The notes under the pieces: model-generated
The model's input: the letters and a program-made list of their open reading frames with translations, nothing else
What the model was told of the DNA's origin: nothing
Databases searched by the model: none
Origin: Bacteroidota bacterium
GTDB taxonomy: Bacteria; Bacteroidota; Ignavibacteria; Kapaibacteriales; UBA961
DNA: 64,000 nucleotides
Direction of reading: 5' to 3'
NCBI GenBank assembly: GCA_020852855.1
Contig: JADZAA010000049.1
Location: 67,449 to 131,448 of the forward strand
Program-made: the position numbers and the translations under genes
Shown: positions 16,345 through 53,213 of the stretch, piece by piece
Layout: each line of letters starts with the position of its first letter
Numbering within the stretch: the stretch's first letter is position 1

Positions 16345-18258
16345 TTACTGCATACGCTGTTGTACCACGCAAAGTGGTGCGGCTATGACGCTTTGTTGCG
16401 TAATGACTTTCACGGAGTATATTCCCGCTTGTAAATTTGATGTGGGGATAGTAATACTGCCACTCGTTATCTTTGCAGAGAATACTGCGTTGCCGAGTAA
16501 ATCGCAAACATACACCTGCGCCGTAGCCTCATTGTCGGAAAACCGCAAAATCACTTCATCGTCGGCTGGATTGGGAAATAACTCGAAAAATGGAACATTC
16601 GCCTCGCTTTGTTTTATGCCGGACGGAATTCCGGTTGTTTTGAAATTCCAAGCGGACGGAGCTTCGCGTGTCAGCGAAATATGCGTTTCTGCCGTGAGAG
16701 TATCGCTCGGAGCATATAAATCGCCGCCGGAGTTCGGATTTACGTCGAACATCGGGTAATTGCTTCCTGTGATTATCAGCCCTATGCGATGCCCGACGGG
16801 AAAAGTTATGGCCAAATCCGTAAGGCGAATTGTGGCCGAATCCGGCGCATCGGGCGTAATAAGTTGTTCTTTTTCAAGAGAATTTCTCAGGCGCAAACGT
16901 TGTATGCCCTGCGTCAGAATTATCCGGCGACCATCGGGATATACATTGCATAGACGTGCCGAAATATCGGCATCGCGGCGATTGCAGTCAAAATATATCT
17001 TAACCTCCGAAGAGCCGGCGAGAGTAACCGGCGCGGAAAGCGGCTCGGTGGAATAACTCAATACGTCGTTGCGCGGCAATAGCGCCGAAATATCTTGCGG
17101 CCCCAGAGCAATTGAGCGGTCGAAAGGATTGAAACGCGAGCCGCCTATAGTCGGAACGGGCTGTCGCGGATTGGCACGCAACGTATCAGGCGGAATTGGC
17201 CGAAAAGTAATCGGCGGCAGCTCAAAACTCAGCCTTCTGCCTTCGTGAAAATATAATGTGGCACTTTCTTTTGTTGCATTGTCCCATGATTCGGTTTCAC
17301 GCCAAATATTATCACCCATTTGATAATATCGAACCGGAGCAACGGATTCCCAGCCGTTCTGCTCGTCGCGCAAATAATAATCAAAAAATCTCATGCCGTC
17401 TTCAACGGGAATACCTGCGGCATTCGGGAAATTAAGAATACCTTGTTCCGACACCCCGATTGATGTATGCAACCAAGGTCCAAATAATAATTTATGCTTA
17501 CTGCGGACTCCAGAGGCACTGTTATTCCGAATATCGTCGAATGCACGCAAAACGCCGCCGGGATAATGGTCGAACCAGCCGCTGCACATAAACATCGGTA
17601 CGGCTATTTTTTTTGATAAATCCGTTAAATTATCCGCAAACTTCCAATATGAGTCGAGTGTGGGATGGGACAGAACAAGTTTTTCGGAGATAAACCCCAA
17701 TCCGGCAAGGCTTTGAACGTGTTCCTTGCGATAATTGCCGCCATAATAATAATCATTGTATTTGGTCTTGAAATCCTTGATAAAAGGTGCGGCGCATATT
17801 AAATGCGGCGGCTGTTGAGCGGCAGTCTGAAATTGAATTAGCCCCAATGCAGAACCGCCCCAAGTTCCTACTTTGCCGTTGCACCAAGTTTGACGGGCAA
17901 TCCATTCCACAATATCAAAACCATCAAGCCCGCGATTATACAGAGCCGAGTCGGATTTTTTATTGGCATAGAACCCGCGCCAATCCGCAATTACATAATT
18001 ATATTTTGCGGAATCGTATGGAACGCTCGCGCCGCTTTCAGAGCCGACTTTTCCTAACGAAAGGCGATACAAGGCCTTATTATAGGGGGTTTGTATTAAA
18101 ATTGTCGGGCGGCGAACGGAAGAGTCGGAAATATAGAGATCGGCAAGCAAATATTTCTTTTCGGAATTGGCAACTCTCGTTGGAATTAAAACTTCGCGGA
18201 ACTGCTGTGCGGTTGCCGTGCATATAGAAAATGCAAATGTAATGAAGAGAAGTTTCAT
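16345..18258 (-). CDS. CocE/NonD (S15, X-Pro dipeptidyl-peptidase-like) family hydrolase with a T9SS C-terminal sorting domain
   Basis: The signal peptide MKLLFITFAFSICTATAQQ starts at the ATG at 18258; the ORF-track start at 18309 is probably too far upstream. DLYISDSSVRRPTILIQTPYNK is the alpha/beta-hydrolase N-terminus. The C-terminal ~80 aa read FELFPNPADDEVILRFS...AGIYSVKVITQQ, which matches a T9SS sorting domain. Confidence 0.75.
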   Translation of the reverse strand: MKLLFITFAFSICTATAQQFREVLIPTRVANSEKKYLLADLYISDSSVRRPTILIQTPYNKALYRLSLGKVGSESGASVPYDSAKYNYVIADWRGFYANKKSDSALYNRGLDGFDIVEWIARQTWCNGKVGTWGGSALGLIQFQTAAQQPPHLICAAPFIKDFKTKYNDYYYGGNYRKEHVQSLAGLGFISEKLVLSHPTLDSYWKFADNLTDLSKKIAVPMFMCSGWFDHYPGGVLRAFDDIRNNSASGVRSKHKLLFGPWLHTSIGVSEQGILNFPNAAGIPVEDGMRFFDYYLRDEQNGWESVAPVRYYQMGDNIWRETESWDNATKESATLYFHEGRRLSFELPPITFRPIPPDTLRANPRQPVPTIGGSRFNPFDRSIALGPQDISALLPRNDVLSYSTEPLSAPVTLAGSSEVKIYFDCNRRDADISARLCNVYPDGRRIILTQGIQRLRLRNSLEKEQLITPDAPDSATIRLTDLAITFPVGHRIGLIITGSNYPMFDVNPNSGGDLYAPSDTLTAETHISLTREAPSAWNFKTTGIPSGIKQSEANVPFFELFPNPADDEVILRFSDNEATAQVYVCDLLGNAVFSAKITSGSITIPTSNLQAGIYSVKVITQQSVIAAPLCVVQQRMQ

Positions 18259-18489
18259 GGAAAAGATAAAAACGGTTGAAAAAACGCCGTTTAGAAACAG
18301 ATCTTGCAACTATAGGTTTAACTGCACGGTAAATTTATTCGGTGCAGAAAATTATATCGGAAAACAGTAGTCGTACATTCCTTAGTTTCATTTTTCGCAC
18401 CGTCCCGAAATTTCGTAATTTTGCGGCATCATCATAAAAATAACTTGTAAAACGTATTGCAGAGTTTTTTTCATTTTCACGTGTTTTTC

Positions 18490-20661
18490 ATGAAAAATAT
18501 TTCTTTTCCACTGCTTGTATCAAGTGCAGTTGCAACTATGTTGCTATCGTCTGTATGTGTATCGGCGCAGCATAATTTCCCGTCGCCCGATAATCCGCGA
18601 GGCATAAAACATACACCTGTCATCGAGTTGGTTGACAAATCCGAACATTCTAAAGCACCTACACTTTACAGTCACGGAGACCCGACTAACGACGAGCAAT
18701 ATACGCTTGAGCTTATCAACCGCGCTCGTGCCAACCCCAAAGAAGAGGGAAGTCGCCTGATGGATACGCCCGATCCCGAGGTACAATCTGCATATTCTTA
18801 TTTCAAAATAAATAAAGCGGCCACAAAGGCGGCGTTTGCGGGCTATCCGGAGCGTCCGCCATTGGCATTTAATGCCAAACTGATTGCGGCGGCACGCACA
18901 CACTCGGCCGATATGCGCGATAAAAATTATCAAGGTCATGACGGCACGGACGGCTCTACTTTTATGCAACGTATCAATAAAGCCGGTTACGTTTCCTCCG
19001 GTTACAGCGGCGAGAATGTTTCGGCTTATTCAAAAACATTATGGTACGGCCACTGCGGTTTTAATGTGGATTGGGGAGAGCAAAATCAAATAGAACTCGG
19101 ACATCGCTCTAATATCATGAATTTTGAAAATTATGTGTACAAAGAAATCGGCGTGGGAATTTATTACCGAACTCCAAGCGGTAACCAAACAGGGCCGTAT
19201 ATTATTACGCATGATTTCGGAACGCGCATGGATAATTTCCTTGTAGGCGTAGTCTACAAGGATAATAACAACAATAATTTCTACGACCCGGGCGAAGGTC
19301 TGGCAAATATTAAAATCACGGCCTCAAAAGGCGAGTACTATGCTATGACTTCGTCGTCGGGCGGCTATGCCATCCCCATAACCGGACTTTCGGGTTCTGT
19401 AACAGTAACGGCCGAAGGCGTAGGATTAGGCCAAACGCTGACCAAAAACGTTATGCTTGACGGCGGTAATAACGTAAAAGCCGATTTTACTTCGGCTTTG
19501 CCCGGTCAGGTAGCTCTAAAATATCCGTCGGACGGCGTACAGATAGAAACGCGCGATTTAACGCTTACATGGTACAAAACGCCAAAGGCTGTTGCATATT
19601 CTTTTGACCTTGCAACCGATGCAAAATTTACTGAAATCGTGAAAACAATCGCGAGTGTAAAAGATACATTTGTAGTACAAAACGGGCTTAAAAACGGTAC
19701 GCAATACTATTGGCGCGTTAAAGCGCAAACACCTACGGGCTGGGGCGATTATTCGCCCGTAAATACCTTCGAAGTATATATTTACCCTGAAACGCCCGGG
19801 CAAATTTATCCCGAAGAAGGTGCTGTTGTTACAACCAAATCCATTACTCTCAGCTGGAGCAATATCTTGCCGAAAGGTGAAGGTTTTTGGTTGGAAGTTG
19901 CCAAAGATTATACCTTTCTCTCAAAAGATATAATAGTAAGCGATTCTAATCTGAAAGACACGACTTTTACGCTGAGCAACCTCGAATATGACCAAGAATA
20001 TTATTGGCATGTAAAAGCGAAAAACGACGCTTTTTGGGGTGATTTTTCGGACGACCGACAATTTATCGTTCTGCAACTGCCCGCAAAACCCGGACTTCTT
20101 GCGCCTGCCGATAAGTATTCAACCTCGAACGGTACCGTAAAATGTACGTGGAAAATAGGTGAAGTTGCGGCTGATAATTTCCGGTTTGAACTTTCGAAAA
20201 CTGCCGATATGAAGCAGATAATGGAATCTGATTCTACCCTGATAGACACGTTCTACGTATGCGGTGCCGCGAACAAACTTGTTGCCGGAACATATTATTG
20301 GCGCGTTCAGTCCCAAAATTTTGCAGGCTGGAGTGAATTCAGCGAAATACGTCAATTTACAATAACGCCGTCGGGCGTTTCGGAAAACGAAAATTTCATT
20401 CGTAGTCTTAGCGCGTCCGTTTCTCCGCTTCCGGTGTCGGGTGCTGCCGCCATAAACTTTACGCTTCCTGCCGCCGGAGATATATCGGTAACTTTACTTG
20501 ATGTACGCGGACGTGAAATAGCGGAATTGGCGCACGGATTCCGTGCGGACGGCAAGAATATCGTTTCTTTCGACGTTTCGAATCTTGAAAACGGTACGTA
20601 TTTCTGCCGTATAGTTACCTCGCATGGAACCGGCACTTTGCAAATTGTCGTGGAACGATGA
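18490..20661 (+). CDS. CAP/SCP/PR1-like domain protein with FN3-like repeats and a T9SS sorting domain
   Basis: The signal peptide starts with MKNISFPLL at 18490. The CAP domain shows ELINRARANP...GHRSNIMNFENYVYKEIGVGIY. At least three repeats end YYWRVKAQ...GWGDYS, YYWHVKAK...FWGDFS and YYWRVQSQ...GWSEFS. The C-terminus is VSPLPVSGAAAINFTLPAAGDISVTLLDVRGREIA...GTYFCRIVTSHG. Confidence 0.75.
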   Translation: MKNISFPLLVSSAVATMLLSSVCVSAQHNFPSPDNPRGIKHTPVIELVDKSEHSKAPTLYSHGDPTNDEQYTLELINRARANPKEEGSRLMDTPDPEVQSAYSYFKINKAATKAAFAGYPERPPLAFNAKLIAAARTHSADMRDKNYQGHDGTDGSTFMQRINKAGYVSSGYSGENVSAYSKTLWYGHCGFNVDWGEQNQIELGHRSNIMNFENYVYKEIGVGIYYRTPSGNQTGPYIITHDFGTRMDNFLVGVVYKDNNNNNFYDPGEGLANIKITASKGEYYAMTSSSGGYAIPITGLSGSVTVTAEGVGLGQTLTKNVMLDGGNNVKADFTSALPGQVALKYPSDGVQIETRDLTLTWYKTPKAVAYSFDLATDAKFTEIVKTIASVKDTFVVQNGLKNGTQYYWRVKAQTPTGWGDYSPVNTFEVYIYPETPGQIYPEEGAVVTTKSITLSWSNILPKGEGFWLEVAKDYTFLSKDIIVSDSNLKDTTFTLSNLEYDQEYYWHVKAKNDAFWGDFSDDRQFIVLQLPAKPGLLAPADKYSTSNGTVKCTWKIGEVAADNFRFELSKTADMKQIMESDSTLIDTFYVCGAANKLVAGTYYWRVQSQNFAGWSEFSEIRQFTITPSGVSENENFIRSLSASVSPLPVSGAAAINFTLPAAGDISVTLLDVRGREIAELAHGFRADGKNIVSFDVSNLENGTYFCRIVTSHGTGTLQIVVER

Positions 20662-21566: not shown

Positions 21567-23978
21567 ATGAAGTACCAATACATACGGGAAGAAGAACTCA
21601 AAAACAAGGTATCCCAAGAATACTTCTGGATATATGATTGCAGTAAAATAATTGGTAATGTGGACTTTTGTGTTTGTATGTATCAAAGTCCGATAGAGCA
21701 GTCCGACCACGAATCTTTACTTTGGGCAGAAGCCAAAAAGGGTTCATCGGATATTTATAAATCAATTGTTCAACTAATATTGACAATCGGCAAAGCAAGA
21801 ACTTTCGATAAATTCCTGCCGCCTGCAATGTTGGGTGCATTCGACGGTGAAAAAATCGCCTTCATTGCTTACAATGATATTCACGAAGTTTTTTATATAA
21901 ACGACTTTAATTGGAACGTAACTCCTTCAAATCATAATACAAAAGAGTTCAAATTAATTCATGAAAAAGTTAAAATAATTATTGATAACAATGCCCTTCT
22001 TTTTAACTATATAAAAGATGACCGAGAGCTGAAGAATTTTATTAAAATGAATTTCGCGGTTGGTAAATTCGGCTTGACAAAAACCAAGATTGACAAAAAT
22101 AATTTTATGATTATTTACAATAAGTGGTTGCGGTCGGTTAAACCGACCATTTCCGTAAATTGGGAGGCGGCAAAAAAGAACGGGATTATTGACGGCGATT
22201 TTTATATTGCAGACTTGTTGTCGCAGGAAAATAACACACTTAAAGAAAAACTCTTTGTATTGCTCCGGCACGACCACTATGAACTTGACCGTAAAATTGA
22301 TGAAGCTGGAATGTTCAGCAGCAAAAAAACAGTCTTTACCGATAACCAAATTGCACATACGCAATTCTGGAATAAATACGACCGTCCGCCACAAGAAGAA
22401 TATTGGGATTATATCGTGGAACGACGCGATTTGCTTGTTCCGCAAGACGTAAGAGAACGCAAGGGGAGTTTCTTTACGCCTCAAATATGGGTGGAACTTT
22501 CGCAAAAATATCTGACCGATGTCCTGGGCGAAGAATGGCAAGACGAATATTACGTCTGGGACTGCGCCGCAGGCACAGGAAATCTACTCGCCGGACTTAC
22601 CAATAAATATAATATTTGGGCTTCAACTTTGGATAAACAAGACGTGGAAGTAATGCGCGACCGTATTAAAAACGGCGCGAACTTATTAGATGACCACGTT
22701 TTTCAGTTTGATTTTTTGAATGATGATTTCAGTAAATTGCCAAAGCCGTTGCAAGACATTATCAATAACCCAAAGAAGAGAAAAAAATTAGTGATTTATA
22801 TCAATCCGCCCTATGCGGAAGGTGATAATGTTAGGGGAATTGGAAGAAAAAACGTTCACATCAGCAAAATACGCAGTAAGTATCAATTTCTAATGGGTAA
22901 AGCAAGTAGTGAAATATTTGCCCAATTTTTCACAAGGATATATCAAGAAATTCCTAACAGTGTGCTTGCAGAGTTTTCAAAGTTGAAAATTCTGCAAGCA
23001 CCAAATTACTCGGATTTCCGAAATTTCTTTCGAGCCAAGCTCGAAAAATCTTTTGTTGTTCCTGCGGACACCTTCGATAATGTAAAAGGAGATTTTCCAA
23101 TTGGTTTTTTTATTTGGAATTTGGACGAAAATGAAGTGTTTGAACAATCAATTATAGACGTTTACGATGCAAAAGGAAAATTTATTAATTCAAAAACTAT
23201 TACATCATATGACAATTCAAAATACATCAGCGACTGGCTTGAAAATTATTCAAGAAAGATTTCTATCAACTATATTGGTCATATGGCTTCCGTTGGTAAC
23301 GACTTCCAGAACCAACGAATGATTTTTATAGATAATAAAGAGAAAGGTAATTGGAAGAAAGGCGGTAGGCACACAAGAATTACAGCAGAAAATTTAATGT
23401 ACGTTTCAATTTATTTTTCAATTCGCAAAGTAGTCGAAGCGACTTGGCTGAACGACCGAGACCAATTTTTATTTCCGAACAATAAATGGGAAACAGACAA
23501 AGAATTTCAAAATGACTGTTTGACATTTACGATTTTCAGTAATAATATTCAGAGCAAATACGGTGTAAATCATTGGATACCGTTTGCAGAGCAAGAGATA
23601 AACGCAAGGGAAAAATTTGACAGTAATTTTATGAGTAATTTCATCGGCGGCAAGCTAAAATCGGCAGGCAACTGCGATTTATTCGACAATCAAACTCGGA
23701 GAACCGCGCCTCTGGTATTTTCGCCGGAAGCAACCGCCGTTTTTGATGCCGGGCGTGAGTTTTGGAAATATTATCACAAGCAACCGAACTGCAATGTAAA
23801 TGCGTCGCTTTACGACATAAGAGAACATTTTCAAGGCAGGAATGAAGCGGGAAAAATGAATAATAAAAGTTTGGACGAAGCATATACGGATTTAATCGGT
23901 AACCTGAGAGAAAAACTGCGGCAACTTGCCGAAAAGATTGAACCGAAAGTGTACGAATACGAATTTTTGAGACAATGA
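21567..23978 (+). CDS. Single-chain Type IIL/IIG (MmeI-like) restriction-modification enzyme candidate. The N-terminus has a PD-ExK nuclease-like motif, followed by a gamma-class N6-adenine DNA methyltransferase and a C-terminal TRD-like region.
   Basis: 803 aa. The N-terminal ...SDHESLLWAEAKKG... gives D47-x7-E55-x-K57. This parallels the MmeI endonuclease motif recalled from memory as VDLFWPGILLIEMKSRG. The MTase motifs are GSFFTPQIW, WDCAAGTGNLLAG (motif I) and VIYINPPYAEG (motif IV). About 280 aa lie after the MTase core. The gene is about 36-38% GC against about 50% for its neighbours. Confidence 0.65.
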   Translation: MKYQYIREEELKNKVSQEYFWIYDCSKIIGNVDFCVCMYQSPIEQSDHESLLWAEAKKGSSDIYKSIVQLILTIGKARTFDKFLPPAMLGAFDGEKIAFIAYNDIHEVFYINDFNWNVTPSNHNTKEFKLIHEKVKIIIDNNALLFNYIKDDRELKNFIKMNFAVGKFGLTKTKIDKNNFMIIYNKWLRSVKPTISVNWEAAKKNGIIDGDFYIADLLSQENNTLKEKLFVLLRHDHYELDRKIDEAGMFSSKKTVFTDNQIAHTQFWNKYDRPPQEEYWDYIVERRDLLVPQDVRERKGSFFTPQIWVELSQKYLTDVLGEEWQDEYYVWDCAAGTGNLLAGLTNKYNIWASTLDKQDVEVMRDRIKNGANLLDDHVFQFDFLNDDFSKLPKPLQDIINNPKKRKKLVIYINPPYAEGDNVRGIGRKNVHISKIRSKYQFLMGKASSEIFAQFFTRIYQEIPNSVLAEFSKLKILQAPNYSDFRNFFRAKLEKSFVVPADTFDNVKGDFPIGFFIWNLDENEVFEQSIIDVYDAKGKFINSKTITSYDNSKYISDWLENYSRKISINYIGHMASVGNDFQNQRMIFIDNKEKGNWKKGGRHTRITAENLMYVSIYFSIRKVVEATWLNDRDQFLFPNNKWETDKEFQNDCLTFTIFSNNIQSKYGVNHWIPFAEQEINAREKFDSNFMSNFIGGKLKSAGNCDLFDNQTRRTAPLVFSPEATAVFDAGREFWKYYHKQPNCNVNASLYDIREHFQGRNEAGKMNNKSLDEAYTDLIGNLREKLRQLAEKIEPKVYEYEFLRQ

Positions 23979-43887: not shown

Positions 43888-46146
43888 TCAGTCAAAAAAT
43901 GTTGCTTGTCCTCCTCGTTTTAGTCGCCAACTGTCCTGTCCAACACGTTCTGCAATATCTTCAAGCACATTTAAAACCGTTTGGCTTTCGGGTGTTGTTC
44001 CATTTTTTAGTAACGGCAAAATTTCTAAAATTATTTGGTCAAAATGTGGCGATTTGTTCTCTCGTTCCATTCTTCGTAAATAACTAATCAAATAGTATTT
44101 TATACGCAGACGAACATCAACATGTGTTCTAAATTTTTTATCTTTTTTTATTGTAAACACCTCTGTCGTTTCATCGTAGTCGAAGTTGTCAAGCAAAATT
44201 GGCGTTAGATCAGTATATTCTTTTTTGAGTAAGTCAAGAAATCCTAGTTCCAAACCTTTTATAATAAGTTCGTCATTGATTTGTTCCAATGTTGCACCGT
44301 CGTTTTTGGCGATAATTCCTTCAATAGTCTGCATCACAATTTCGGCAATGTCCATTCCGAGATTTGCCTTCAAAATAGCCTTCGGATTGCGCACTTTTCG
44401 GAAATTAATAATCAGTTGTCCGCTCAAAACCGTAAACGGATTTTGTCGTTTTTTGAAACTTGTCTGTCCGTTTTTTTGTGGAACTGCACCGATGTATTCA
44501 AAACCGCAACTTTCTGCTGTGTCAATGATTAAATGCCAAAACTCAGGATCTTTGTGTGCAAAAACAAACGATAACCAACGGTCGTATTTTAGTACACGAT
44601 ACATTTCCTTAATACTTTGTGCAATAAGTTCGTTGTATTCGTCTTTGCTCTTTTTTTGTTCGCCTCCTTCAATGGCTTCTTGTTTGTAATCGTCTTCGGT
44701 TACTTCCAAATCAAGCCAAGCGTTCCACATTGCTGACAAATCTAAATACGGAATTTTCTTTCCGTAAGGCGGGTCGGTGTAAATGTAATCTACACTTTCT
44801 TTGGGCAAAAAACTTAAATCGGTAGCCGAACCTTTTATGATTTGTGCGTTTGAAATGGTTTTGTCGTTGATGAAATATTCAATTTCTTTTTTCGCTTCTA
44901 AAACTTTTTTATAGCGAAGTTCAAAACATTGTGTAACGGCAATATCTGTTGGGTCAGGTGCAAGTCTATAACGATAATATCGGAAAGCTGCAGCATCACC
45001 TCCAAAACCTGTGTTTGCTTCAACTGCCTTACTAATGTGATAAGTTAAATTAACTCGTGTAATAACTCCTGAAAAAGCTAACAACAAAGAATTTTTTATA
45101 TTTTCATTTTTCTCTTTCAAAATGATTGATTTTAGTAATGACAGTTCCGCTAATTGTTTATCGCTAAAAAGTTGGTCAACGGTTTCAACATCAGAACCTT
45201 TTGGCAATAGTAATGGTTTTGGTTGAGGATATTTTTTAATTGCTTTTTTTATTTCGGATTCTGTTTTGGGTTCGTGTTTTATGTATTCTTCTTTTACACG
45301 ATTAAACGCATTTTTCAATTCATTTTGGGTAATTGGTGCGATAAGCGACTTAACTAAAAAAACAGCCATTGGGTTGATGTCAATATTTATTCCTTTTCTG
45401 CCACTCATTATTGCTTCAATAACGGTTACACCGCTACCACCAAAAGGGTCAAGCACTAAATCACCCGGTTTACTGAAATTTTTAATGTATTCTTGAACAA
45501 CATTCCACGTTTGTTTAGTGAAATATCCGTGAACTCCAAAATGTCTTTTAGCTGCACGTTTTTTCACTTCAATTTCTTCAAGCAGTGGTCGTGTTGCGTA
45601 GTCAAAACCTGTTGGTTTTGCTGTTGCATTTGTGGTGTCATAAGTTAGTGTTTTACCAACTTGAAAACTGCTTGGCGAAAGGAATAATTTTATATCTTCC
45701 CAATGATGTTCAATTTCGTCAATTTGAAAAAATAAAATAGGTTTTTCAGTATCGTTCGTTCTAAAAACAGAAAATTCTAAACCATTGCAAAGAGCAAAAT
45801 AATTACTTCTGATTTCTGGGTGTGTGGCGTAGCAATACACTTGTTCCACATTGTCGTCATTGATAATTTTTTGGTTAGGTGCTTTTGCATCTAAAACCCA
45901 AGCAAAATTATTTTCAACTTTTAGAGCATAGTCGGGAATAAGGTTTATAGGTCGTTTTTTACTGCCTGTTTTGAGAAAAGGGTGTTGCAGTGTTTTACTA
46001 CGAACAATGTTTTCTTGGGAATAACCAAGTTCTTTAAGAATTGGAAGTATGATTACTTCTCTAACGCTGTCTTCCTTGAAGTCAGGGTTTTGAGTTAGTG
46101 TCCGAAAATCTAAATTTCCGAAAAGTTGTTGTCTTGTTACCGCCAT
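43888..46146 (-). CDS. Fusion of an HsdR-N-like PD-(D/E)xK nuclease domain to an N6/N4 DNA methyltransferase (candidate single-chain restriction-modification/defence enzyme)
   Basis: 752 aa. The N-terminal ~140 aa (ILPILKELGY...PDYALKVENNFAWVLDAKAPNQKI...QVYCYATHPEIRSNYFALCNGLEFSVF) match the HsdR-N/Mrr-like nuclease fold with a PD...LDAK core. The MTase has FxGxG motif I (LVLDPFGGSGVTVIEA) at about aa 229 and motif IV (YIYTDPPYGKK) at about aa 455, with about 200 aa between them (alpha-like order). A ~190-aa C-terminal tail follows. The gene is low-GC. Confidence 0.6.
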   Translation of the reverse strand: MAVTRQQLFGNLDFRTLTQNPDFKEDSVREVIILPILKELGYSQENIVRSKTLQHPFLKTGSKKRPINLIPDYALKVENNFAWVLDAKAPNQKIINDDNVEQVYCYATHPEIRSNYFALCNGLEFSVFRTNDTEKPILFFQIDEIEHHWEDIKLFLSPSSFQVGKTLTYDTTNATAKPTGFDYATRPLLEEIEVKKRAAKRHFGVHGYFTKQTWNVVQEYIKNFSKPGDLVLDPFGGSGVTVIEAIMSGRKGINIDINPMAVFLVKSLIAPITQNELKNAFNRVKEEYIKHEPKTESEIKKAIKKYPQPKPLLLPKGSDVETVDQLFSDKQLAELSLLKSIILKEKNENIKNSLLLAFSGVITRVNLTYHISKAVEANTGFGGDAAAFRYYRYRLAPDPTDIAVTQCFELRYKKVLEAKKEIEYFINDKTISNAQIIKGSATDLSFLPKESVDYIYTDPPYGKKIPYLDLSAMWNAWLDLEVTEDDYKQEAIEGGEQKKSKDEYNELIAQSIKEMYRVLKYDRWLSFVFAHKDPEFWHLIIDTAESCGFEYIGAVPQKNGQTSFKKRQNPFTVLSGQLIINFRKVRNPKAILKANLGMDIAEIVMQTIEGIIAKNDGATLEQINDELIIKGLELGFLDLLKKEYTDLTPILLDNFDYDETTEVFTIKKDKKFRTHVDVRLRIKYYLISYLRRMERENKSPHFDQIILEILPLLKNGTTPESQTVLNVLEDIAERVGQDSWRLKRGGQATFFD

Positions 46147-46364
46147 TTATTTCTCCGTTTAGAGCTACAAAGTTATACAGTTAATAGCGACATTTTTATT
46201 TATTGGTGTGCCGTTGTTCCGTTAACCTTGCCGCCCTACTTACTTATAAGCGAAACTTTACTTAATTTTATATGTTCAATATAGTAAAAAAATAAAAATC
46301 ATCAAACGGATTTTTAATTTTTTTAATTTTTTTAGCGAAGAAAATCTAAAATATGAGGATATAG

Positions 46365-46457
46365 ATGAGGTAATGAGAAGATGAAACAAACGACCGCGAA
46401 ATGTGCTGAATGTTAAAACGCCAAGTCAAGTATTTTCAACCTTTTTTATTCTGTTGC
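46365..46457. repeat. Direct repeat copy B (~93 bp), flanking islet 2
   Basis: ATGAGGTAATgagAAGAtgAAACAAacGACCGCGAAAtgTGCTGAATGTTAAAACGCCAAGTCAAGTATTtTCAACcTTTTTTAtTCTGTTGC. It contains the hairpin AAGTCAAGT...ACTTGACTT. Confidence 0.7.
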
Positions 46458-46478
46458 ACTTGACTTTTGATTTAGATA

Positions 46479-48911
46479 TTAAAAAACTAATACGGGAATA
46501 TTCAAATGTTGCTCTGCCAGACGAATTGTAATAATATATAAACCCTTCGGAATATCTTCACAATTCCATTCTATGTAACCGCCGTTTCTGCTCTGCTGAA
46601 TTATGCGTGTTGTTTGGTCTACATTCGGAACGTCCGAACCGGAAATACTGCGAATATTGATTGTTGCATCGGAAATATTATACTTCGGCTCACAGGAAAC
46701 ATCGCAACGAATAAATCCGTGTGCAGGCATAGGATATGGCTCGCTTTTCCATAGCCATGCGGGATGCTCAACTGCGTTATGCTGCACACCCACAGGCGAT
46801 TGCAATACCGATATTTTTACAATATTTGTTAAATAATCTATTGGTTTCGGTACCGCGTAAACTTGCTTGCTTATAAGCATTATTGCCGTTGTGTCTGCGG
46901 TTGATTGTACGTTGAAAATTGTACTTTGGTCTTCGTTATTCCACTTTGAAAAAATATTCTCGGCTTTTATCGAGTCCCACTTCGTGTCACTATCTTTTAT
47001 ATTTTCTGCCGAATACAATGTATTTTCTTCTGTTATAAAGCATAGCCTATTGTTAAGAATAAACGATGTTTTTATTGGTGCATCAATATATACAGAGTCA
47101 AATTTACGGGTAAGATAATCGTAACGATATAATAAGTGATTATTTGTGGGGATAATAATATTTTGTCCGACTATTTTCAATTCCGGTAAAACAGGATTGT
47201 CATAGTAATATTTATCGGTGGCAATTGCATAACGAAGTGGTTGCGTAATTGGGAGAGTAATGCTATCCCATGTTTTACCGTAATCGGTTGAGCGTAACAA
47301 TGCATAACTATACGAATAATCGGGTGCGTAACCGTCGCTGTCTGCAGTAGGCTTCCCGGCAGTTCGTAGCCCTAAGGTCAAGATTGACTCATCGGGCATT
47401 GTTGTCATGCTAATAGCATTGTCAAAAGGTAAGCGTACAGAATCAAGTAACTGCAAATTTTCATTGTAAAGTAATAGCAGGTTCAGCGGTGTGAATGATG
47501 GCTTACGTGTAAAAATAGCGTAACGTTCTCCTGTTTTTATTCCGTTCTTATATAGAGAGCCGCCGAGCATCAAAGAATCGTAGCCATACGATTTATATGT
47601 GTACCCATTGTCAGATGTCGCAAACACATTGGCATCAGGCACAATATTAGTATCAAATACAATATATCCTTTTTCTTTGTCTGTAAGGAAATAATTGCGC
47701 GGATTCGCTGACTTGTTACCCTTGAAAGTATGTGTATAAGTCTGAGGTAACCATGTTGCGCCGCCGTCTGTTGTTCTGAAAAACGAGAATGTGTTAAATA
47801 GGAACATTGTATTTGCATTACGACATATAAAATTACTTGGCGATGCATTGGAATATTTTATACAAGATAAAAAATTCCACGTTTTACCGGAATCATACGA
47901 CATTGCGATGCACTTATCTTTACCTACTGCAATTATAGTATCGGGAGTTAGTGCAAGTATCTCTTGAAAATAAAATGAATACCTTGACATCGATAATTGC
48001 AGCTTCGCCGAGTCAAGCGGATTAATAACAGTTATATATGAAGTATCGGCAGAATAATGTGATGTATCAGCCTTTATATAATCAATAGCCAACAAATCAT
48101 TTGCTTCATCAGGTATATATTGGCTTTTCGGCCGTATATAGTATCTCTCGTTATTTACAATATGACTGCACGAACCATTGTACACCGCACCGGGGAAAAA
48201 TGTTTCCCAAGTTTCTCCTTTATTAAATGTTTGTAAAATTTTATCGTAGCTGTAGGTTGTGTAGTCGTTACTTACCGTGAATGTTAATGTACCTTCATTA
48301 TTACGTAAGCCGTGTATTATATTCGGATAGGCTTTGTTTGCGGGTGGTATGTGTGCTGCTACATAGACAGTGTCGAAAGATAACTTGCTTGCATTGTATC
48401 GAATTAAAAGTGTGTCATTACAAGTAATCCAGGTACCTGTTTCATCTATATGTATTTCACCGTAGTTCAAGTTGCTGTCGAGCGTCAGAAATTGTTTAAT
48501 CGTTTGGTCATTTTTTACGGAAAGTACATTTGACTTTGTAAGAATATATGTAGAATCTCCGTAAATTGTTATATCTATAATATCAGGTGTTGTAGATACA
48601 TCAACAATGTCCCAAAAAGCACCATTTTTCTGTGAAAATATCAACGAATAATCGGTAACTCCAATAAATTCGTTACCTGTGGCAAATATACGCTTTATCG
48701 AATGTTTATCCCCTAAGGATATTTGACTCCACGTTGCACCGAAATCGGTAGAACGGGTAATTATGCCATAATCTCCGTAGCAAAGTACGGCCGAGCCGTT
48801 GAAAGCAATACCCCGATAGTCGGTTATCAAACGCTCGGTTCTAAACGTTACTTCTTGTGCCCACAGAGGTATAGCAAGCAGGAACACGATTAATATGTAA
48901 ACTGTTTTCAT
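46479..48911 (-). CDS. BNR/Asp-box repeat beta-propeller protein (sortilin/GH74/Ycf48-like) with a probable T9SS C-terminal sorting domain
   Basis: The signal peptide MKTVYILIVFLLAIPLWAQ starts at the ATG at 48911; the ORF-track start at 49022 is probably too far upstream. Five SxDxGxTW-type motifs are present (STDFGATW, TFNKGETW, SYDSGKTW, TTDGGATW, STDYGKTW). The C-terminus is ...PKGLYIITIRLAEQHLNIPVLVF. The gene is low-GC. Confidence 0.6.
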   Translation of the reverse strand: MKTVYILIVFLLAIPLWAQEVTFRTERLITDYRGIAFNGSAVLCYGDYGIITRSTDFGATWSQISLGDKHSIKRIFATGNEFIGVTDYSLIFSQKNGAFWDIVDVSTTPDIIDITIYGDSTYILTKSNVLSVKNDQTIKQFLTLDSNLNYGEIHIDETGTWITCNDTLLIRYNASKLSFDTVYVAAHIPPANKAYPNIIHGLRNNEGTLTFTVSNDYTTYSYDKILQTFNKGETWETFFPGAVYNGSCSHIVNNERYYIRPKSQYIPDEANDLLAIDYIKADTSHYSADTSYITVINPLDSAKLQLSMSRYSFYFQEILALTPDTIIAVGKDKCIAMSYDSGKTWNFLSCIKYSNASPSNFICRNANTMFLFNTFSFFRTTDGGATWLPQTYTHTFKGNKSANPRNYFLTDKEKGYIVFDTNIVPDANVFATSDNGYTYKSYGYDSLMLGGSLYKNGIKTGERYAIFTRKPSFTPLNLLLLYNENLQLLDSVRLPFDNAISMTTMPDESILTLGLRTAGKPTADSDGYAPDYSYSYALLRSTDYGKTWDSITLPITQPLRYAIATDKYYYDNPVLPELKIVGQNIIIPTNNHLLYRYDYLTRKFDSVYIDAPIKTSFILNNRLCFITEENTLYSAENIKDSDTKWDSIKAENIFSKWNNEDQSTIFNVQSTADTTAIMLISKQVYAVPKPIDYLTNIVKISVLQSPVGVQHNAVEHPAWLWKSEPYPMPAHGFIRCDVSCEPKYNISDATINIRSISGSDVPNVDQTTRIIQQSRNGGYIEWNCEDIPKGLYIITIRLAEQHLNIPVLVF

Positions 48912-49012
48912 AAAATTATTTCTGTAAAAGAGTAAAATATGGTGCAGATAATAGATTTGCGATTTACGCCGCCTAACATTTGACTTCACAGATTCGGAAA
49001 GATGTTTTATTA

Positions 49013-49666
49013 TTATGGGCAATCCATTTCTTTATAACACTCGCTATTTTGTAGCCAACCCGTAAAATGAACTGATGGTTCACCAGGTTCCGATGGCCAC
49101 GGGGAATTTCGATTGCAGGTATATTCTATTCTTTGATAATTAGGATCCGGGCTATTGGGGCATTTAATAATGTCCAATGTTTGCTCATCTCGACAAACTT
49201 GCCAAGTTACAATGCAATAATCGCCATTAATGCATGGAGTTTTCCAGTTTTTATAATGATATGATAAATCAGGATTCTGCCAACCGAATGTCGACCATTG
49301 ATAGCATATAGGAAATTCTAAAGTTAGTATCCGGCAACCGGTTGAGCATGGCGGTATGTCACAAAATAACGCATAATGTGGCATGAACTGCGAGCGTAAC
49401 CAAGTTTCGTCGGGTGTCCAATTAGGGCATGGAGAGCGCGGATTTGCGGGTTTTATATCCATAACTTTTACGTTAGCCGGATCTGCACCGCTGATGCCGC
49501 ATTTGTAGCAGAACTCTATTATCCAAGAACAGCCGTTCGGGTCGGGACCAAAAGTTAGTGTCGTAGAATTCCAACCCGGAAGACATTGAGCATTTACTGA
49601 TATTGTTTCGAATATGCAACCCATAAAAATGAGCATTAAAGTAAAGAATGAAAGAAGTAAATTCAT
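49013..49666 (-). CDS. Cysteine-rich secreted protein, paralog A (217 aa, ~16 Cys in the mature part)
   Basis: A signal peptide is followed by AQC...GCSWIIEFCYKCG...CDIPPCSTGC...DYCIVTWQVC.... The Cys spacing is shared with paralog B at 52281-52898. Confidence 0.55.
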   Translation of the reverse strand: MNLLLSFFTLMLIFMGCIFETISVNAQCLPGWNSTTLTFGPDPNGCSWIIEFCYKCGISGADPANVKVMDIKPANPRSPCPNWTPDETWLRSQFMPHYALFCDIPPCSTGCRILTLEFPICYQWSTFGWQNPDLSYHYKNWKTPCINGDYCIVTWQVCRDEQTLDIIKCPNSPDPNYQRIEYTCNRNSPWPSEPGEPSVHFTGWLQNSECYKEMDCP

Positions 49667-49842
49667 TTTGGTACCCTGAAAATGAAAGAATAGATTAAAA
49701 TCCAGCGCAAATTATACATATTTATTGTTATTGTAAAATATATTTTTTGCGTGATAAAGCATAATAACAAAACAAACCGCATTACTACGGCTTATTTGAT
49801 ATTTGCCCCTATTTTACGGGTATTCTTTCTGTATAGTATCTA

Positions 49843-50595
49843 TCAGAAAACTGGTACTATAAAGGATACGACAGACGACGGCTTGCCGATTTGCCTATAT
49901 AATGGCAGGTGCGTTTCGGGATCTTTTACTGTACCTCCGTCGGGAATAGTATTCAGTGGCGAAAGCGGATATGCGATTGCATATAGCCGTTGATATTGCC
50001 GGAAGTCTTGGGCAATGAGCGTCGGGCCGCTGATTATAAGAACAGATCGCAACGAATCAGTGAATATGAGTTTATCGGTAACGTAGAGATATCTGCCCGG
50101 CTCGCACGAAACGGTTGCAGCGGTATCAAGAAACAACAATGCTTGCACTTTTGGAAAAAAAGCCGTGGGAATCGAAGAAATTGTTGCTTCGCATCGCACA
50201 GATCCTTGCGATGTGTCCGAAATAACGATAAATTCCGTCAATTGAGCCGGCTCCTGCACTAAGGTTATCGGCGGAATATGCACAGTGCCGTTACCTGCGA
50301 ATACATAGTCAATAATTTCGGCACTGCAATAGTTGTCTTTCGAGAAAACAATGCGGTGTAGTCCGGGAGGAACATTATTTAATATCCACGAGCCGTCTGC
50401 AGCCGACAGCGTTTCAACTCCCGCCGCTGAAATTTTAACGCCGGCTCTATCCGCCACAAATGGCGCGTCCTCACGGACAAGATAGACGATACCTTTCAAA
50501 ACGCCGGGCGCAGTAGCCGTTGCATTTGGGCCGGGCTCGCCCTCGCAACCCGAAAGAATTGCTGCCAATATTATTAAAATTATAATCACTTTCAT
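49843..50595 (-). CDS. Lipoprotein with carboxypeptidase-regulatory-like (CarbopepD_reg/transthyretin-like) domain, paralog 3
   Basis: The lipobox ILSGCEGEPG has acidic residues after the Cys. The domain reads GVLKGIVYLV...DGSWILNNVPPGLHRIVFSKDNY. Confidence 0.6.
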   Translation of the reverse strand: MKVIIILIILAAILSGCEGEPGPNATATAPGVLKGIVYLVREDAPFVADRAGVKISAAGVETLSAADGSWILNNVPPGLHRIVFSKDNYCSAEIIDYVFAGNGTVHIPPITLVQEPAQLTEFIVISDTSQGSVRCEATISSIPTAFFPKVQALLFLDTAATVSCEPGRYLYVTDKLIFTDSLRSVLIISGPTLIAQDFRQYQRLYAIAYPLSPLNTIPDGGTVKDPETHLPLYRQIGKPSSVVSFIVPVF

Positions 50596-51434
50596 GGCAT
50601 TCTTACTTTAATTCTTCGCACTTGAATTGTATCGGTTACGGTAGAAACAAAATTCCCTGTAGCGGGGTCTCGGTAAAATGTTTTGCCTGTAGTGGGTTGT
50701 ATATCCCATGATGAACTTTCGTTTTCGCGCCAACGCCAATAGGGAAAGCCAGATATATAGATGTACGAACCGGGTGTAACACCTTTGTTCAATAACGGCT
50801 TGAAATAGATGTTATCATTAAGTCCATCATATAGGCCGTTGCTCCCACTGTTATTATTAAGTGTAGCGTATGCATCAAGATATGATTCAGGCCGATAGGG
50901 TGAGGCTGTACTATCTACTGAAAGTAACAATAAAAGTCCCTGCTCATTATTTGGCGCGTATTTATTATAACCGTTACGGTCAGGCGGTCCAAATCTGGCT
51001 GATATTGCCACCGAATAATTGTTAGTATTGCCTACCGGATAGAATTCCGAGAACGGATAAAACCCTGCAAGGCGCGTGATGGCAACCGGAACAGTCGTAA
51101 TTTCACCACCGTTACACTGCATTTCGGGCAGGCGCATTGTGCTAAAACCGGGTCTGGAGAATCGTATAGAATACGAACCCGCCGGAATATCTTTCAGCAT
51201 CCACAGCCCTGCCGCATCGGTTTTCGTGCGGAAGTTCGTTCCTTCGAGTTCGACCGTAGTACCAATTCCATCAGAAAGTAATAGACGATAATAAGTGAAT
51301 GTTGTATCATAGGCCGCACAATAACCGCGTAGCGTTGTCAATATGGGCTTACCCGGCTCGCCGACGGGCGGAGTGCATCCTGCTATAATTATCGCCGCTA
51401 TCCATAATGCAAAAAGGATATGTTTGTTCATCAT
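50592..51434 (-). CDS. Lipoprotein with carboxypeptidase-regulatory-like domain, paralog 2
   Basis: The lipobox is IIAGCTPPVGEPG. The domain reads ...TDAAGLWMLKDIPAGSYSIRFSRPGFS. The start (M10/M11) is uncertain. Confidence 0.6.
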   Translation of the reverse strand: MMNKHILFALWIAAIIIAGCTPPVGEPGKPILTTLRGYCAAYDTTFTYYRLLLSDGIGTTVELEGTNFRTKTDAAGLWMLKDIPAGSYSIRFSRPGFSTMRLPEMQCNGGEITTVPVAITRLAGFYPFSEFYPVGNTNNYSVAISARFGPPDRNGYNKYAPNNEQGLLLLLSVDSTASPYRPESYLDAYATLNNNSGSNGLYDGLNDNIYFKPLLNKGVTPGSYIYISGFPYWRWRENESSSWDIQPTTGKTFYRDPATGNFVSTVTDTIQVRRIKVRMP

Positions 51435-51435
51435 A

Positions 51436-52206
51436 TTATTTTCTATAAGGCGGTAAGACAAATGAAGCGGTGAATCCCTTCAGCCCAACGGCTGTTGAAA
51501 CGACTATTCTGCCAGTTACGGGATGCGGGTATAGAAACTGCTTGCCCGCCAAATGTCCAATTGCCGTAACATAAAACGAATCGCCCGGCTTGATGCCTGC
51601 CTGCCATAATTCTTCTTGGTTAATACCGTGGGAGTGTTGCATCCAATCGTAATCTTCAGGAGTAGGCGGTGCATTTTTTTTGAAATAAAGCGAATAGGTC
51701 ATAGGAATGCTGTCGGGCGGATACGAGGCAATGTCCACCTTAAATTCGGGCACATTCAATGACTTAAATTGTTCGTCTAAATTCATACGAATATCCGTGA
51801 TTTCTAAGGGGATGAGTTTCCCGAGCCATACGGCATCATACTGCGCACCCGGCATATCGTACACAAATACTTTTTTCCCCGCTTCAACGGGTACATTAGA
51901 AACTACCATTTTGCCGTAGCCTGCTTTCTGAAATATCAGAGTTCGTCGTCCAGCCGGCACATCATCAAGGTTCCACATTCCGTTTCTGTCTGTTTGTGTT
52001 GTAAGGAGCGTTCCTGCAACCGCAACGGTAATGCCCGAATTGTCGTATTCGGCTTCTATGTCTTTGCTCAACCGTGCAAGTACCGCTCGCCCGGCCAATA
52101 TTCCCGTTCCAGCCGGGGCATCGGCACCGGCAGGGCCTTGCGAGCAGTTCCATTGTAAAAATACAATTATTAAGCATATACATAGAAGAAGTGCACGGTG
52201 TTTCAT
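51436..52206 (-). CDS. Lipoprotein with carboxypeptidase-regulatory-like domain, paralog 1
   Basis: The signal plus lipobox is LQWNCSQ. The domain reads GILAGRAVLA...TDRNGMWNLDDVPAGRRTLIFQKAGYG. Confidence 0.6.
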   Translation of the reverse strand: MKHRALLLCICLIIVFLQWNCSQGPAGADAPAGTGILAGRAVLARLSKDIEAEYDNSGITVAVAGTLLTTQTDRNGMWNLDDVPAGRRTLIFQKAGYGKMVVSNVPVEAGKKVFVYDMPGAQYDAVWLGKLIPLEITDIRMNLDEQFKSLNVPEFKVDIASYPPDSIPMTYSLYFKKNAPPTPEDYDWMQHSHGINQEELWQAGIKPGDSFYVTAIGHLAGKQFLYPHPVTGRIVVSTAVGLKGFTASFVLPPYRK

Positions 52207-52280
52207 TTAGAGTAATATTTTATTGTTTTATAAAAATTAAATCAATAAAACCAGACTGTCAATTGACCGAATGGTTACTA

Positions 52281-52898
52281 CTATCTTACACAGGACTTAT
52301 AGCGACATTCTTCGTCACCCGACTCGCAACCTTTAGTTTGTGTCAAATCTGTACATATCAAAGTTAGATGGCCGTCTGGAGGGCAAAGGCAGATCTTATA
52401 CACTATTGAACAATCAGTTTCTGATGTACAACATTTGTAACAATTACCTACTTTTTTATAGCATCTTGCAAATAGTAATTCGACGTAACTATAAAAAACC
52501 GAGTTCACACAAGGGGGTGCCGGAGAACAGCCCGGATACCAGAGGCCGAGTTGATTATTGATAATTAAGGCACTTTGTAGCTCTTCGATCAAGTCGTGGA
52601 AATTGATAGACGGCGAGCAGTTACCGTAACAAATTTCATTTATTTTTATTCTTTTGTCAAGTTGTGCTACAAATACTCCGCATACACTATCATTGTATGT
52701 AACATTCGTGGAATCAAAACAATATTTGATAACAATAGTACACGGAACATTACCATTCATAATATTCAAGGTTGCCGTTTGTTCGGTTCCGCCATCGGAA
52801 CATGGACAATTGGATTGCGCTTTCAAGTTTGTCGCAACGCTGATGATAATGCTTGCGAGAATTGCCAAAGTAGAAAAGAATGATTGAAGCGATTTCAT
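52281..52898 (-). CDS. Cysteine-rich secreted protein, paralog B (205 aa, ~20 Cys)
   Basis: A signal peptide is followed by NCPCSDGG...PCTIVIKYCFDST...GCSPAPPCVNS...DCSIVYKICLCPP...CRYKSC. The Cys pattern is homologous to paralog A. Confidence 0.55.
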   Translation of the reverse strand: MKSLQSFFSTLAILASIIISVATNLKAQSNCPCSDGGTEQTATLNIMNGNVPCTIVIKYCFDSTNVTYNDSVCGVFVAQLDKRIKINEICYGNCSPSINFHDLIEELQSALIINNQLGLWYPGCSPAPPCVNSVFYSYVELLFARCYKKVGNCYKCCTSETDCSIVYKICLCPPDGHLTLICTDLTQTKGCESGDEECRYKSCVR

Positions 52899-53213
52899 GA
52901 TAATCTCCTAAAAAAAGAAAAAACGGTTGTATATTGAGATTCTTCGGTGAGAGCGAGGCGTTTTTTCTCTTAGGAGGCGAACGATTGACAATGCGATAAA
53001 AATTGAGAATTTCTATTGCAGGTTGCAGGTTGCATAACGATATTTTGCAATAGATTAGCAATTGTTCTGTTTGTATAAAGCCAAGTTACATATATTTTCC
53101 ATAATTACAAAATATATTTATTGTATGAAAAAAAACAGTCGTATTTCTACGACTATTTATGAAATTTTGCTGTTTTCGAGCAGATTTTTTCGCTTCTGTT
53201 CGAAGTTCGATAT

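Follow-up and report, generated by a model that had tools for sequence, protein, structure and literature searches.

The window analysed here is a stretch of 64,000 nucleotides of DNA from a Bacteroidota bacterium (GenBank assembly GCA_020852855.1, contig JADZAA010000049.1), and the locus under study is a run of five genes at positions 49013-52898. The original prediction described these genes as one module in which two paralogous cysteine-rich secreted proteins bracket three tandem lipoproteins, and all five open reading frames (ORFs) are indeed present and co-oriented on the minus strand. In the direction of transcription they are C2 (52281-52898), which encodes a secreted Cys-rich orphan of 205 amino acids (aa) with 20 Cys; L1 (51436-52206), L2 (50592-51434), and L3 (49843-50595), which encode paralogous lipoproteins of 256, 280, and 250 aa, respectively; and C1 (49013-49666), which encodes another secreted Cys-rich orphan of 217 aa with 17 Cys, 16 of them in the mature protein. 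The gaps between the genes had been described as mostly tiny. This applies to the lipoprotein genes, where L2 starts 1 nt past the L1 stop and the ATG of L3 shares 4 nt (ATGA) with the L2 stop, but not to the outer genes, as 74 nt separate C2 from L1 and 176 nt separate L3 from C1. Because of the 1-nt gap and the 4-nt overlap, L1-L3 are translationally coupled.

The AT-rich spacer between L3 and C1 contains a terminator-like hairpin with a U-rich tail on the minus strand (49770-49797; terminator scan), and the 146 nt around it fold with z=-3.2. Just downstream of this hairpin, in the AT-rich stretch, lies a promoter-like site (49757-49730, minus strand). The C2-L1 spacer showed no significant structure (z=-1.3) and no terminator. 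A mosaic base composition, also part of the original prediction, was observed, with a GC content of 38.8% for C2 and 41.1% for C1 compared to 44.8-47.7% for L1-L3 and 44.8% for the whole window. The GC content at third codon positions (GC3) was 0.36 for both C2 and C1, 0.40-0.45 for L1-L3, and 0.48-0.50 for rpoB, rpoC, and glgP of the window.

Recurrence of C2-L1-L2-L3 in a second species

By way of two homologues of the lipoproteins, P0004 (L1 ortholog) and P0005 (L3 ortholog), the locus was traced to a second species (JGI 3300056789 Ga0558720_04657; ENA ERZ27258520 and related samples). The order L1'-L2'-L3' and the 4-nt overlap of L2' and L3' are kept in this species, and the encoded proteins are 68% (L1; P0004), ~70% (L2), and 72-73% (L3; P0005) identical to those of the window. 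The sequence directly upstream of L1' is the 3' portion of a gene orthologous to C2; the encoded protein is 60% identical to C2 over 146 aa, and all 17 overlapping Cys are invariant between C2 and C2'. Downstream of L3', no C1 was found, and no Cys-rich ORF is present across the 286 nt that lead to a convergent gene for a 1053-aa BNR/sortilin protein. Since the order C2'-L1'-L2'-L3' recurs and C1 is absent after L3', the conserved unit consists of C2, L1, L2, and L3. The bracketed arrangement of five genes was not borne out, given the absence of C1 at this position, the hairpin that splits L3 from C1, and the placement of C1 within a low-GC block.

Comparison of the window with the second species gave ratios of nonsynonymous to synonymous substitution (dN/dS) of 0.08-0.11 for L1-L3. 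Between C2 and C2', the proportion of nonsynonymous differences (pN) was 0.26, and that of synonymous differences (pS) was 0.94, which is saturated; saturation was also seen in the third bases at conserved residues, of which the two genes share 8 of 19 at four-fold sites and 25 of 47 at two-fold sites. Because dN/dS is low in L1-L3 and the pN of C2 stands at 0.26 against a saturated pS, these alignments indicate that C2 and L1-L3 are all real genes under purifying, not diversifying, selection. Diversifying selection, which the original prediction had read from the tandem paralogy, is thus not supported. Ten metagenomic copies from the window's own species, which is carried by samples such as SRR24928207 and ERZ27309507, are 99.98-100% identical across the region and are therefore uninformative on selection. 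Hypervariation of the kind produced by diversity-generating retroelements was considered and rejected on the identity of the metagenomic copies.

The spacer between C2' and L1' carries a strong GC-rich intrinsic terminator (L011:172-203) with a 14-bp stem, 12 GC pairs, and a T-run. This 86-nt spacer folds with -41 kcal/mol (z=-4.5), and the terminator ends ~36 nt before the ATG of L1'. The arrangement fits either attenuated read-through, with more C2 than lipoprotein being made, or separate transcription units. The composition of C2 is distinctive in both genomes. The second species has a GC content of 56%, 11 GC points apart from the window, and its GC3 is 0.71-0.78 for the genes encoding ClpX, ClpP, the 1053-aa BNR protein, and a TP_0789-like protein, intermediate for L1'-L3' (0.56-0.63), and 0.40 for C2'. 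Thus, C2 is AT-rich in both hosts despite their deep divergence. When the surroundings of glgP were inspected in 80 related genomes, no homologue of C1, C2, L1-L3, the downstream gene BNR810, or the TPR gene was found. The window's organism, an uncultured Ignavibacteria bacterium known from a metagenome-assembled genome (MAG; locus tags MASR2M18_13060 and MASR2M18_13080), has a glycogen phosphorylase (glgP) that shares no more than 62% identity with its counterpart in any GTDB representative genome, and Kapaibacterium and Ignavibacteria MAGs predominate among the closest relatives.

Features of the lipoproteins and the Cys-rich proteins

The three lipoproteins are related to each other by BLASTP (1e-10 for L1-L2, 2e-7 for L1-L3, and 2e-6 for L2-L3), with the similarity confined to the N-terminal ~110 aa that comprise the lipoprotein signal and a CarboxypepD_reg/transthyretin-like domain. 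In Pfam, the family PF13620 (CarboxypepD_reg; gathering threshold 32.3 bits) matched L2 at 33.9 bits, L1 at 32.3 bits, which is the cut-off itself, and L3 at 19.7 bits, which is under it; L3 is subthreshold in Pfam alone and homologous to the other two. The three genes are thus tandem paralogues, as had been proposed, and arose by tandem duplication. Besides its lipoprotein signal, each protein has a Gly/Pro-rich tether and a single transthyretin-like/CarboxypepD_reg beta-sandwich (~aa 33-117 in L1), which places it among a known type, the lipoproteins with a CarboxypepD_reg domain. The C-terminal domains are divergent, again in line with the original prediction: these 140-165 aa (~140 aa in L1, an orphan domain) gave no sequence match to a carbohydrate-binding module (CBM), a Pfam family, or a PDB entry. 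Those of L1 and L2 are weakly similar (hhalign E=0.004), and that of L3 has no detectable similarity to either.

Lipoboxes were judged by inspection as signal peptides ending in [LVI][ASTVI][GAS]C. Of the three that had been proposed, those of L2 (IAGC) and L3 (LSGC) are canonical and that of L1 (QWNC) is not, though it reads VTAC in the L1 ortholog, and the 6/6 available sequences share the Cys. Acidic residues right after the Cys had been reported for two of the proteins; they were found in L3 (C-E-G-E, positions +1 and +3), but the first acidic residue lies at +6 in L2 and +8 in L1, and the export signal is undefined for Ignavibacteria. An AlphaFold2 model of L1, built from a five-sequence alignment, had a predicted local distance difference test score (pLDDT) of 49 overall, with 62-88 for residues ~33-117 and <50 for the C-terminal domain. 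In Foldseek searches, the modelled N-domain matched X-modules of type II X-dockerins, the transthyretin-like domain of carboxypeptidase D (CPD), and the N-terminal extension (NTE) of SusC (E=3e-6 to 7e-4), consistent with a predicted transthyretin-like beta-sandwich fold. Scans of GTDB representative genomes and of JGI metagenomes with a four-sequence alignment of the lipoproteins, using two peptide patterns each, yielded no confirmed relative; the word-index search scored 8000 candidates, and the window's own species is apparently missing from both of the scanned collections.

C2 starts with a Sec-type signal peptide (cleavage ...NLKA|QS). Of the 20 Cys in the mature protein, an even number, 13 fall within ~58 aa of the very Cys-dense C-terminal half. 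A GGAG Shine-Dalgarno-like motif lies 6 nt ahead of the ATG. In the 5' untranslated region (52905-52977, minus strand), the A-rich segment CCUCCUAAGAGAAAAAAC can pair with a U-rich segment that ends in GGAG, a pairing that would sequester this motif; the support is modest (z=-1.97), as 10/200 shuffles fold equally well. Farther upstream, the divergent intergenic region contains a hairpin of 11 bp with nine U behind it at 53133-53158 (minus strand), where there is no upstream minus-strand gene to terminate; the full 315-nt spacer folds with z=-4.2. No match to C2 was found in Pfam, NCBIfam, PDB, PADLOC, or PHROGs, and no relative was found by tblastn in phage and plasmid collections or in IMG/VR scans. 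A word-index search of 5.8 billion proteins and an exhaustive phmmer search of 1.84 billion cluster representatives each retrieved the query itself alone. The mature protein modelled without an alignment reached a pLDDT of 50, and Foldseek returned nothing below E=0.85 for this model.

For C1, a plausible signal peptide (...SVNA|QC; cleavage VNA|Q) is obtained only from the start that gives 217 aa, and the mature form then has 16 Cys, also an even number; gene callers often choose a start inside this frame, for a protein of 203 aa. C1 had no match in Pfam, NCBIfam, PADLOC, or PHROGs and no meaningful match in PDB, the word-index search of the same 5.8 billion proteins retrieved the query alone, and no relative was found in the metagenome scan, the IMG/VR viral scan, or the phage and plasmid tblastn; the exhaustive phmmer search covered C2, and C1 was searched by the word-index, metagenome, viral, phage, plasmid, and PDB scans. 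A phmmer match in PDB of C1 residues 51-74 to Tako8, a designed propeller/repeat protein (E=1.7e-6), contained no individually significant stretch and was put down as an artefact of the target's repeats, and the second PDB match was marginal (E=1.2). Contig JAANMU010001698.1 of GCA_013328915.1, from the same species, matches the window from 59603 to 49199 and ends inside C1, where 89 nt of unrelated sequence with ~60% GC (L099:10429-10517) yield a 159-aa variant of C1 (P0007). This variant is probably a chimeric contig end and not a real allele. A codon model built from other genes of the window ranks the annotated frame of C1, and likewise that of C2, first among the six, with absolute scores that are atypical of the genome.

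The two Cys-rich proteins had been called clearly homologous, a claim that did not survive comparison: BLASTP gave E=0.12, the local alignment scored 35 against a mean of 34.5 in composition-preserving shuffles (z=0.09; 868/2000 shuffles at least as good), hhalign of a C2 profile against C1 gave a probability of 1.4%, and the longest colinear chain of Cys spacings was no longer than with randomly placed Cys. The C-x6-C motifs, beta-strand-like and occurring in the same order (CSWIIEFC/CTIVIKYC and CIVTWQVC/CSIVYKIC), are real; by these comparisons they are no more than chance would produce in two sequences rich in Cys, and a remote structural relationship is conceivable. The description of both as uncharacterised secreted proteins that are rich in Cys and lack known motifs stands, as neither matched any family. 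They part ways in conservation: as far as searched, C1 is not conserved outside its genome, and C2 has an ortholog in the second species. A candidate role for C1 and C2 as cytochromes or haem proteins was rejected because no CxxCH motif was seen by eye.

Chromosomal surroundings

The window is core chromosome, with nusG, rplA, rpoB, and rpoC. The gene BNR810 (46479-48911, minus strand), which lies 101 nt downstream of C1, encodes an 810-aa BNR/Ycf48-like beta-propeller protein (Pfam PSII_BNR, 4e-8; Por_Secre_tail, 0.012, under the cut-off), and it is followed by a gene for a 752-aa DNA methyltransferase (43888-46146, minus strand; Pfam N6_N4_Mtase, 1e-16) that adjoins rpoC. The best PADLOC match of the methylase was PglX/Type II MTase (4e-41), and no partner genes were seen. 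The GC content is 37.7% for BNR810 and 35.4% for the methylase gene, with GC3 values of 0.34 and 0.27. C1 was grouped with this low-GC block because its GC3 of 0.36 is near these values, and the region 43888-49666 (methylase, BNR810, and C1) looks like a horizontally acquired island. Elsewhere in the window, an ORF of 803 aa (21567-23978, plus strand; 36.9% GC) had no Pfam match at E<=1e-5. Paralogy of BNR810 with this low-GC ORF was considered and rejected, as the two show no similarity.

Cargo proteins of the type IX secretion system (T9SS) are encoded elsewhere in the window. Two divergent cargo genes at 16345-20661 both have a Por_Secre_tail; one encodes an S15 X-Pro dipeptidyl-peptidase, and the other carries CAP and fn3 together with a CarboxypepD_reg domain that scores under the threshold, so that this last domain occurs in another exported protein of the window. 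In C1, C2, and L1-L3, no Por_Secre_tail match was found at E<=1, and these proteins, being without a C-terminal sorting domain, were rejected as T9SS cargo. The only TonB-dependent receptor of the window lies at 1910-4129, 45 kb off, and no main ORF is SusD-like, which agrees with the earlier observation that no SusC/SusD pair is near the cluster. In the Pfam annotation of the main window ORFs, no glycoside hydrolase adjoins the cluster. None of the five proteins matched PADLOC or PHROGs, where the methylase alone did, and no toxin domain, defence gene, secretion-system marker, or phage or plasmid link was found at the locus with Pfam, NCBIfam, PADLOC, and PHROGs. Rfam returned nothing relevant, and literature searches found no described system that combines a Cys-rich secreted protein with such lipoproteins.

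Interpretation and likeness to known systems

The reading that we favour, tentatively, is that C2-L1-L2-L3 forms a conserved, lineage-restricted envelope block whose four products may act together, and that it stands beside an unrelated low-GC block of C1, BNR810, and the methylase gene. In this reading, C1 lies outside the conserved block as an unrelated Cys-rich orphan that is secreted and has a promoter region to itself. We infer that C2 is exported and folds as a rigid protein with multiple disulfides. L1-L3 would be lipid-anchored in the outer membrane, where the Ig-like domain could serve as a stalk presenting three divergent C-terminal domains, and the four proteins could then constitute a binding or scaffold assembly of the cell envelope, on its surface or its periplasmic face. 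The lipoproteins might hold C2 as a partner or ligand, and because of the strong C2'-L1' terminator at the ortholog locus C2 is probably made in excess of L1-L3. Several points weigh against this reading. Two species alone carry the block, so that the conserved adjacency amounts to one comparison; the models of C2 (pLDDT 50) and of the lipoprotein C-terminal domains (<50) are of low confidence, and no fold backs a binding role; the search for distant lipoprotein relatives was limited in its reach to 8000 candidates and two peptide patterns per scan; the strong terminator could equally mean independent C2' and L1'-L3' transcripts; and the composition of C2, unlike that of L1-L3 in both genomes, could mean separate origins.

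These last two points are also what speaks for an incidental adjacency, in which C2, L1-L3, and C1 would be independent lineage-specific envelope or secreted proteins gathered in a variable chromosomal region, as would fit the lack of homologues in the 80 glgP neighbourhoods. We consider this unlikely, since the order C2-L1-L2-L3 has been kept across 11 GC points, saturated synonymous sites, and different downstream neighbours, and the ~36 nt between the terminator and the start of L1' leave scant room for an independent promoter. A bolder version of the linked block, and an unlikely one, would have C2 as a previously unseen disulfide-rich fold locked to the trio of Ig-stalk lipoproteins in a new envelope receptor or scaffold complex, its AT-richness being due to codon selection or repeated horizontal replacement, with C1 perhaps a structurally related second member that cannot be recognised by sequence.

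It is distinctly unlikely that L1-L3 are SusE/SusF-like surface glycan-binding lipoproteins for nutrient capture with C2 as an accessory. Their architecture resembles such proteins in having an N-terminal lipid anchor, an Ig-like domain, beta-rich C-terminal domains, and tandem paralogues, and the SusC NTE is among the transthyretin-like folds matched by the L1 N-domain model; however, the SusC/SusD pair and an adjoining glycoside hydrolase are missing, the sole TonB-dependent receptor is distant, and nothing among CBMs, Pfam families, or PDB entries corresponds to the C-terminal domains. The proposal that C2, and perhaps C1, is a horizontally acquired, disulfide-rich antimicrobial or toxin-like protein for which the lipoproteins act as immunity or export helpers is improbable. 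It draws on the orphan status and Cys-dense C-terminal half of C2 and on its atypical GC3 in both hosts (0.36 vs 0.45-0.49 here and 0.40 vs 0.71-0.78 in the other species), and immunity proteins are often lipoproteins. Against this, no toxin, bacteriocin, defence, or secretion-system domain and no phage, plasmid, or viral relative was found in the searches described above, C2 is under strongly purifying selection with no allelic diversity in ten samples, and three conserved immunity genes per toxin would be unusual. The toxin/immunity, metal-capture, and nutrient-capture roles suggested in the original prediction thus gained no positive evidence from Pfam, NCBIfam, PADLOC, or PHROGs. A single five-gene module, for instance of a ligand or toxin with its receptor or immunity proteins, is the least probable reading, as the co-orientation of all genes, the export of all products, and the same-order C-x6-C motifs of two low-GC Cys-rich orphans are outweighed by a C1-C2 homology that lacks statistical support, the missing C1 after L3', the hairpin and 176-nt AT-rich spacer ahead of C1, and a base composition that C1 has in common with BNR810 and the methylase gene downstream of it.

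For now, the chief outcome is a correction of the earlier description, in that the unit of interest comprises four genes and not five. Should the link between C2 and L1-L3 prove functional, the scant knowledge of the cell surface in uncultured Ignavibacteria/Kapabacteria-like bacteria would be extended by a small envelope system specific to the lineage, and structural work would gain a new family of disulfide-rich proteins. The locus alone makes no long-standing question testable, and it points to no known or striking system.

Among known families, the CAP/SCP proteins (PF00188), one of which is encoded in the window at 18457-20661, have in common with C1 and C2 a signal peptide and a high Cys content, and the even mature Cys counts of C1 (16) and C2 (20) are compatible with all-disulfide proteins. 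They differ from known Cys-rich families in that no relative of C2 below 50% identity was found among 1.84e9 cluster representatives, and by their sequences C1 and C2 are orphans of unassigned fold. SusE/SusF of the polysaccharide utilization loci of Bacteroidota resemble L1-L3 in architecture only, as tandem lipoproteins with Ig-like and beta-rich domains; the locus is without SusC/SusD, and the C-terminal domains have no CBM match in sequence or in fold (the model there having a pLDDT <50). With CarboxypepD_reg/transthyretin-like proteins, the likeness is closer, as L1 and L2 reach the Pfam score and the modelled L1 N-domain superposes on a domain of carboxypeptidase D (5aq0), but this domain makes up ~85 of 250-280 residues in L1-L3 and has no peptidase or transporter domain attached to it. 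Compared to cellulosomal scaffoldins, L1-L3 are without dockerin or cohesin and are Gram-negative-type lipoproteins of Ignavibacteria rather than parts of a Firmicutes cellulosome. Nevertheless, the best match to their N-domain is the X-module of the type II X-dockerin of these scaffoldins (4u3s, 4wi0, 2b59, and 5g5d), both for the family profile (E=4e-10) and for the fold (E=3e-6), with ~25% identity over ~90-105 columns, and the scaffoldin X-module is an Ig-like stalk that sits beside a binding module.

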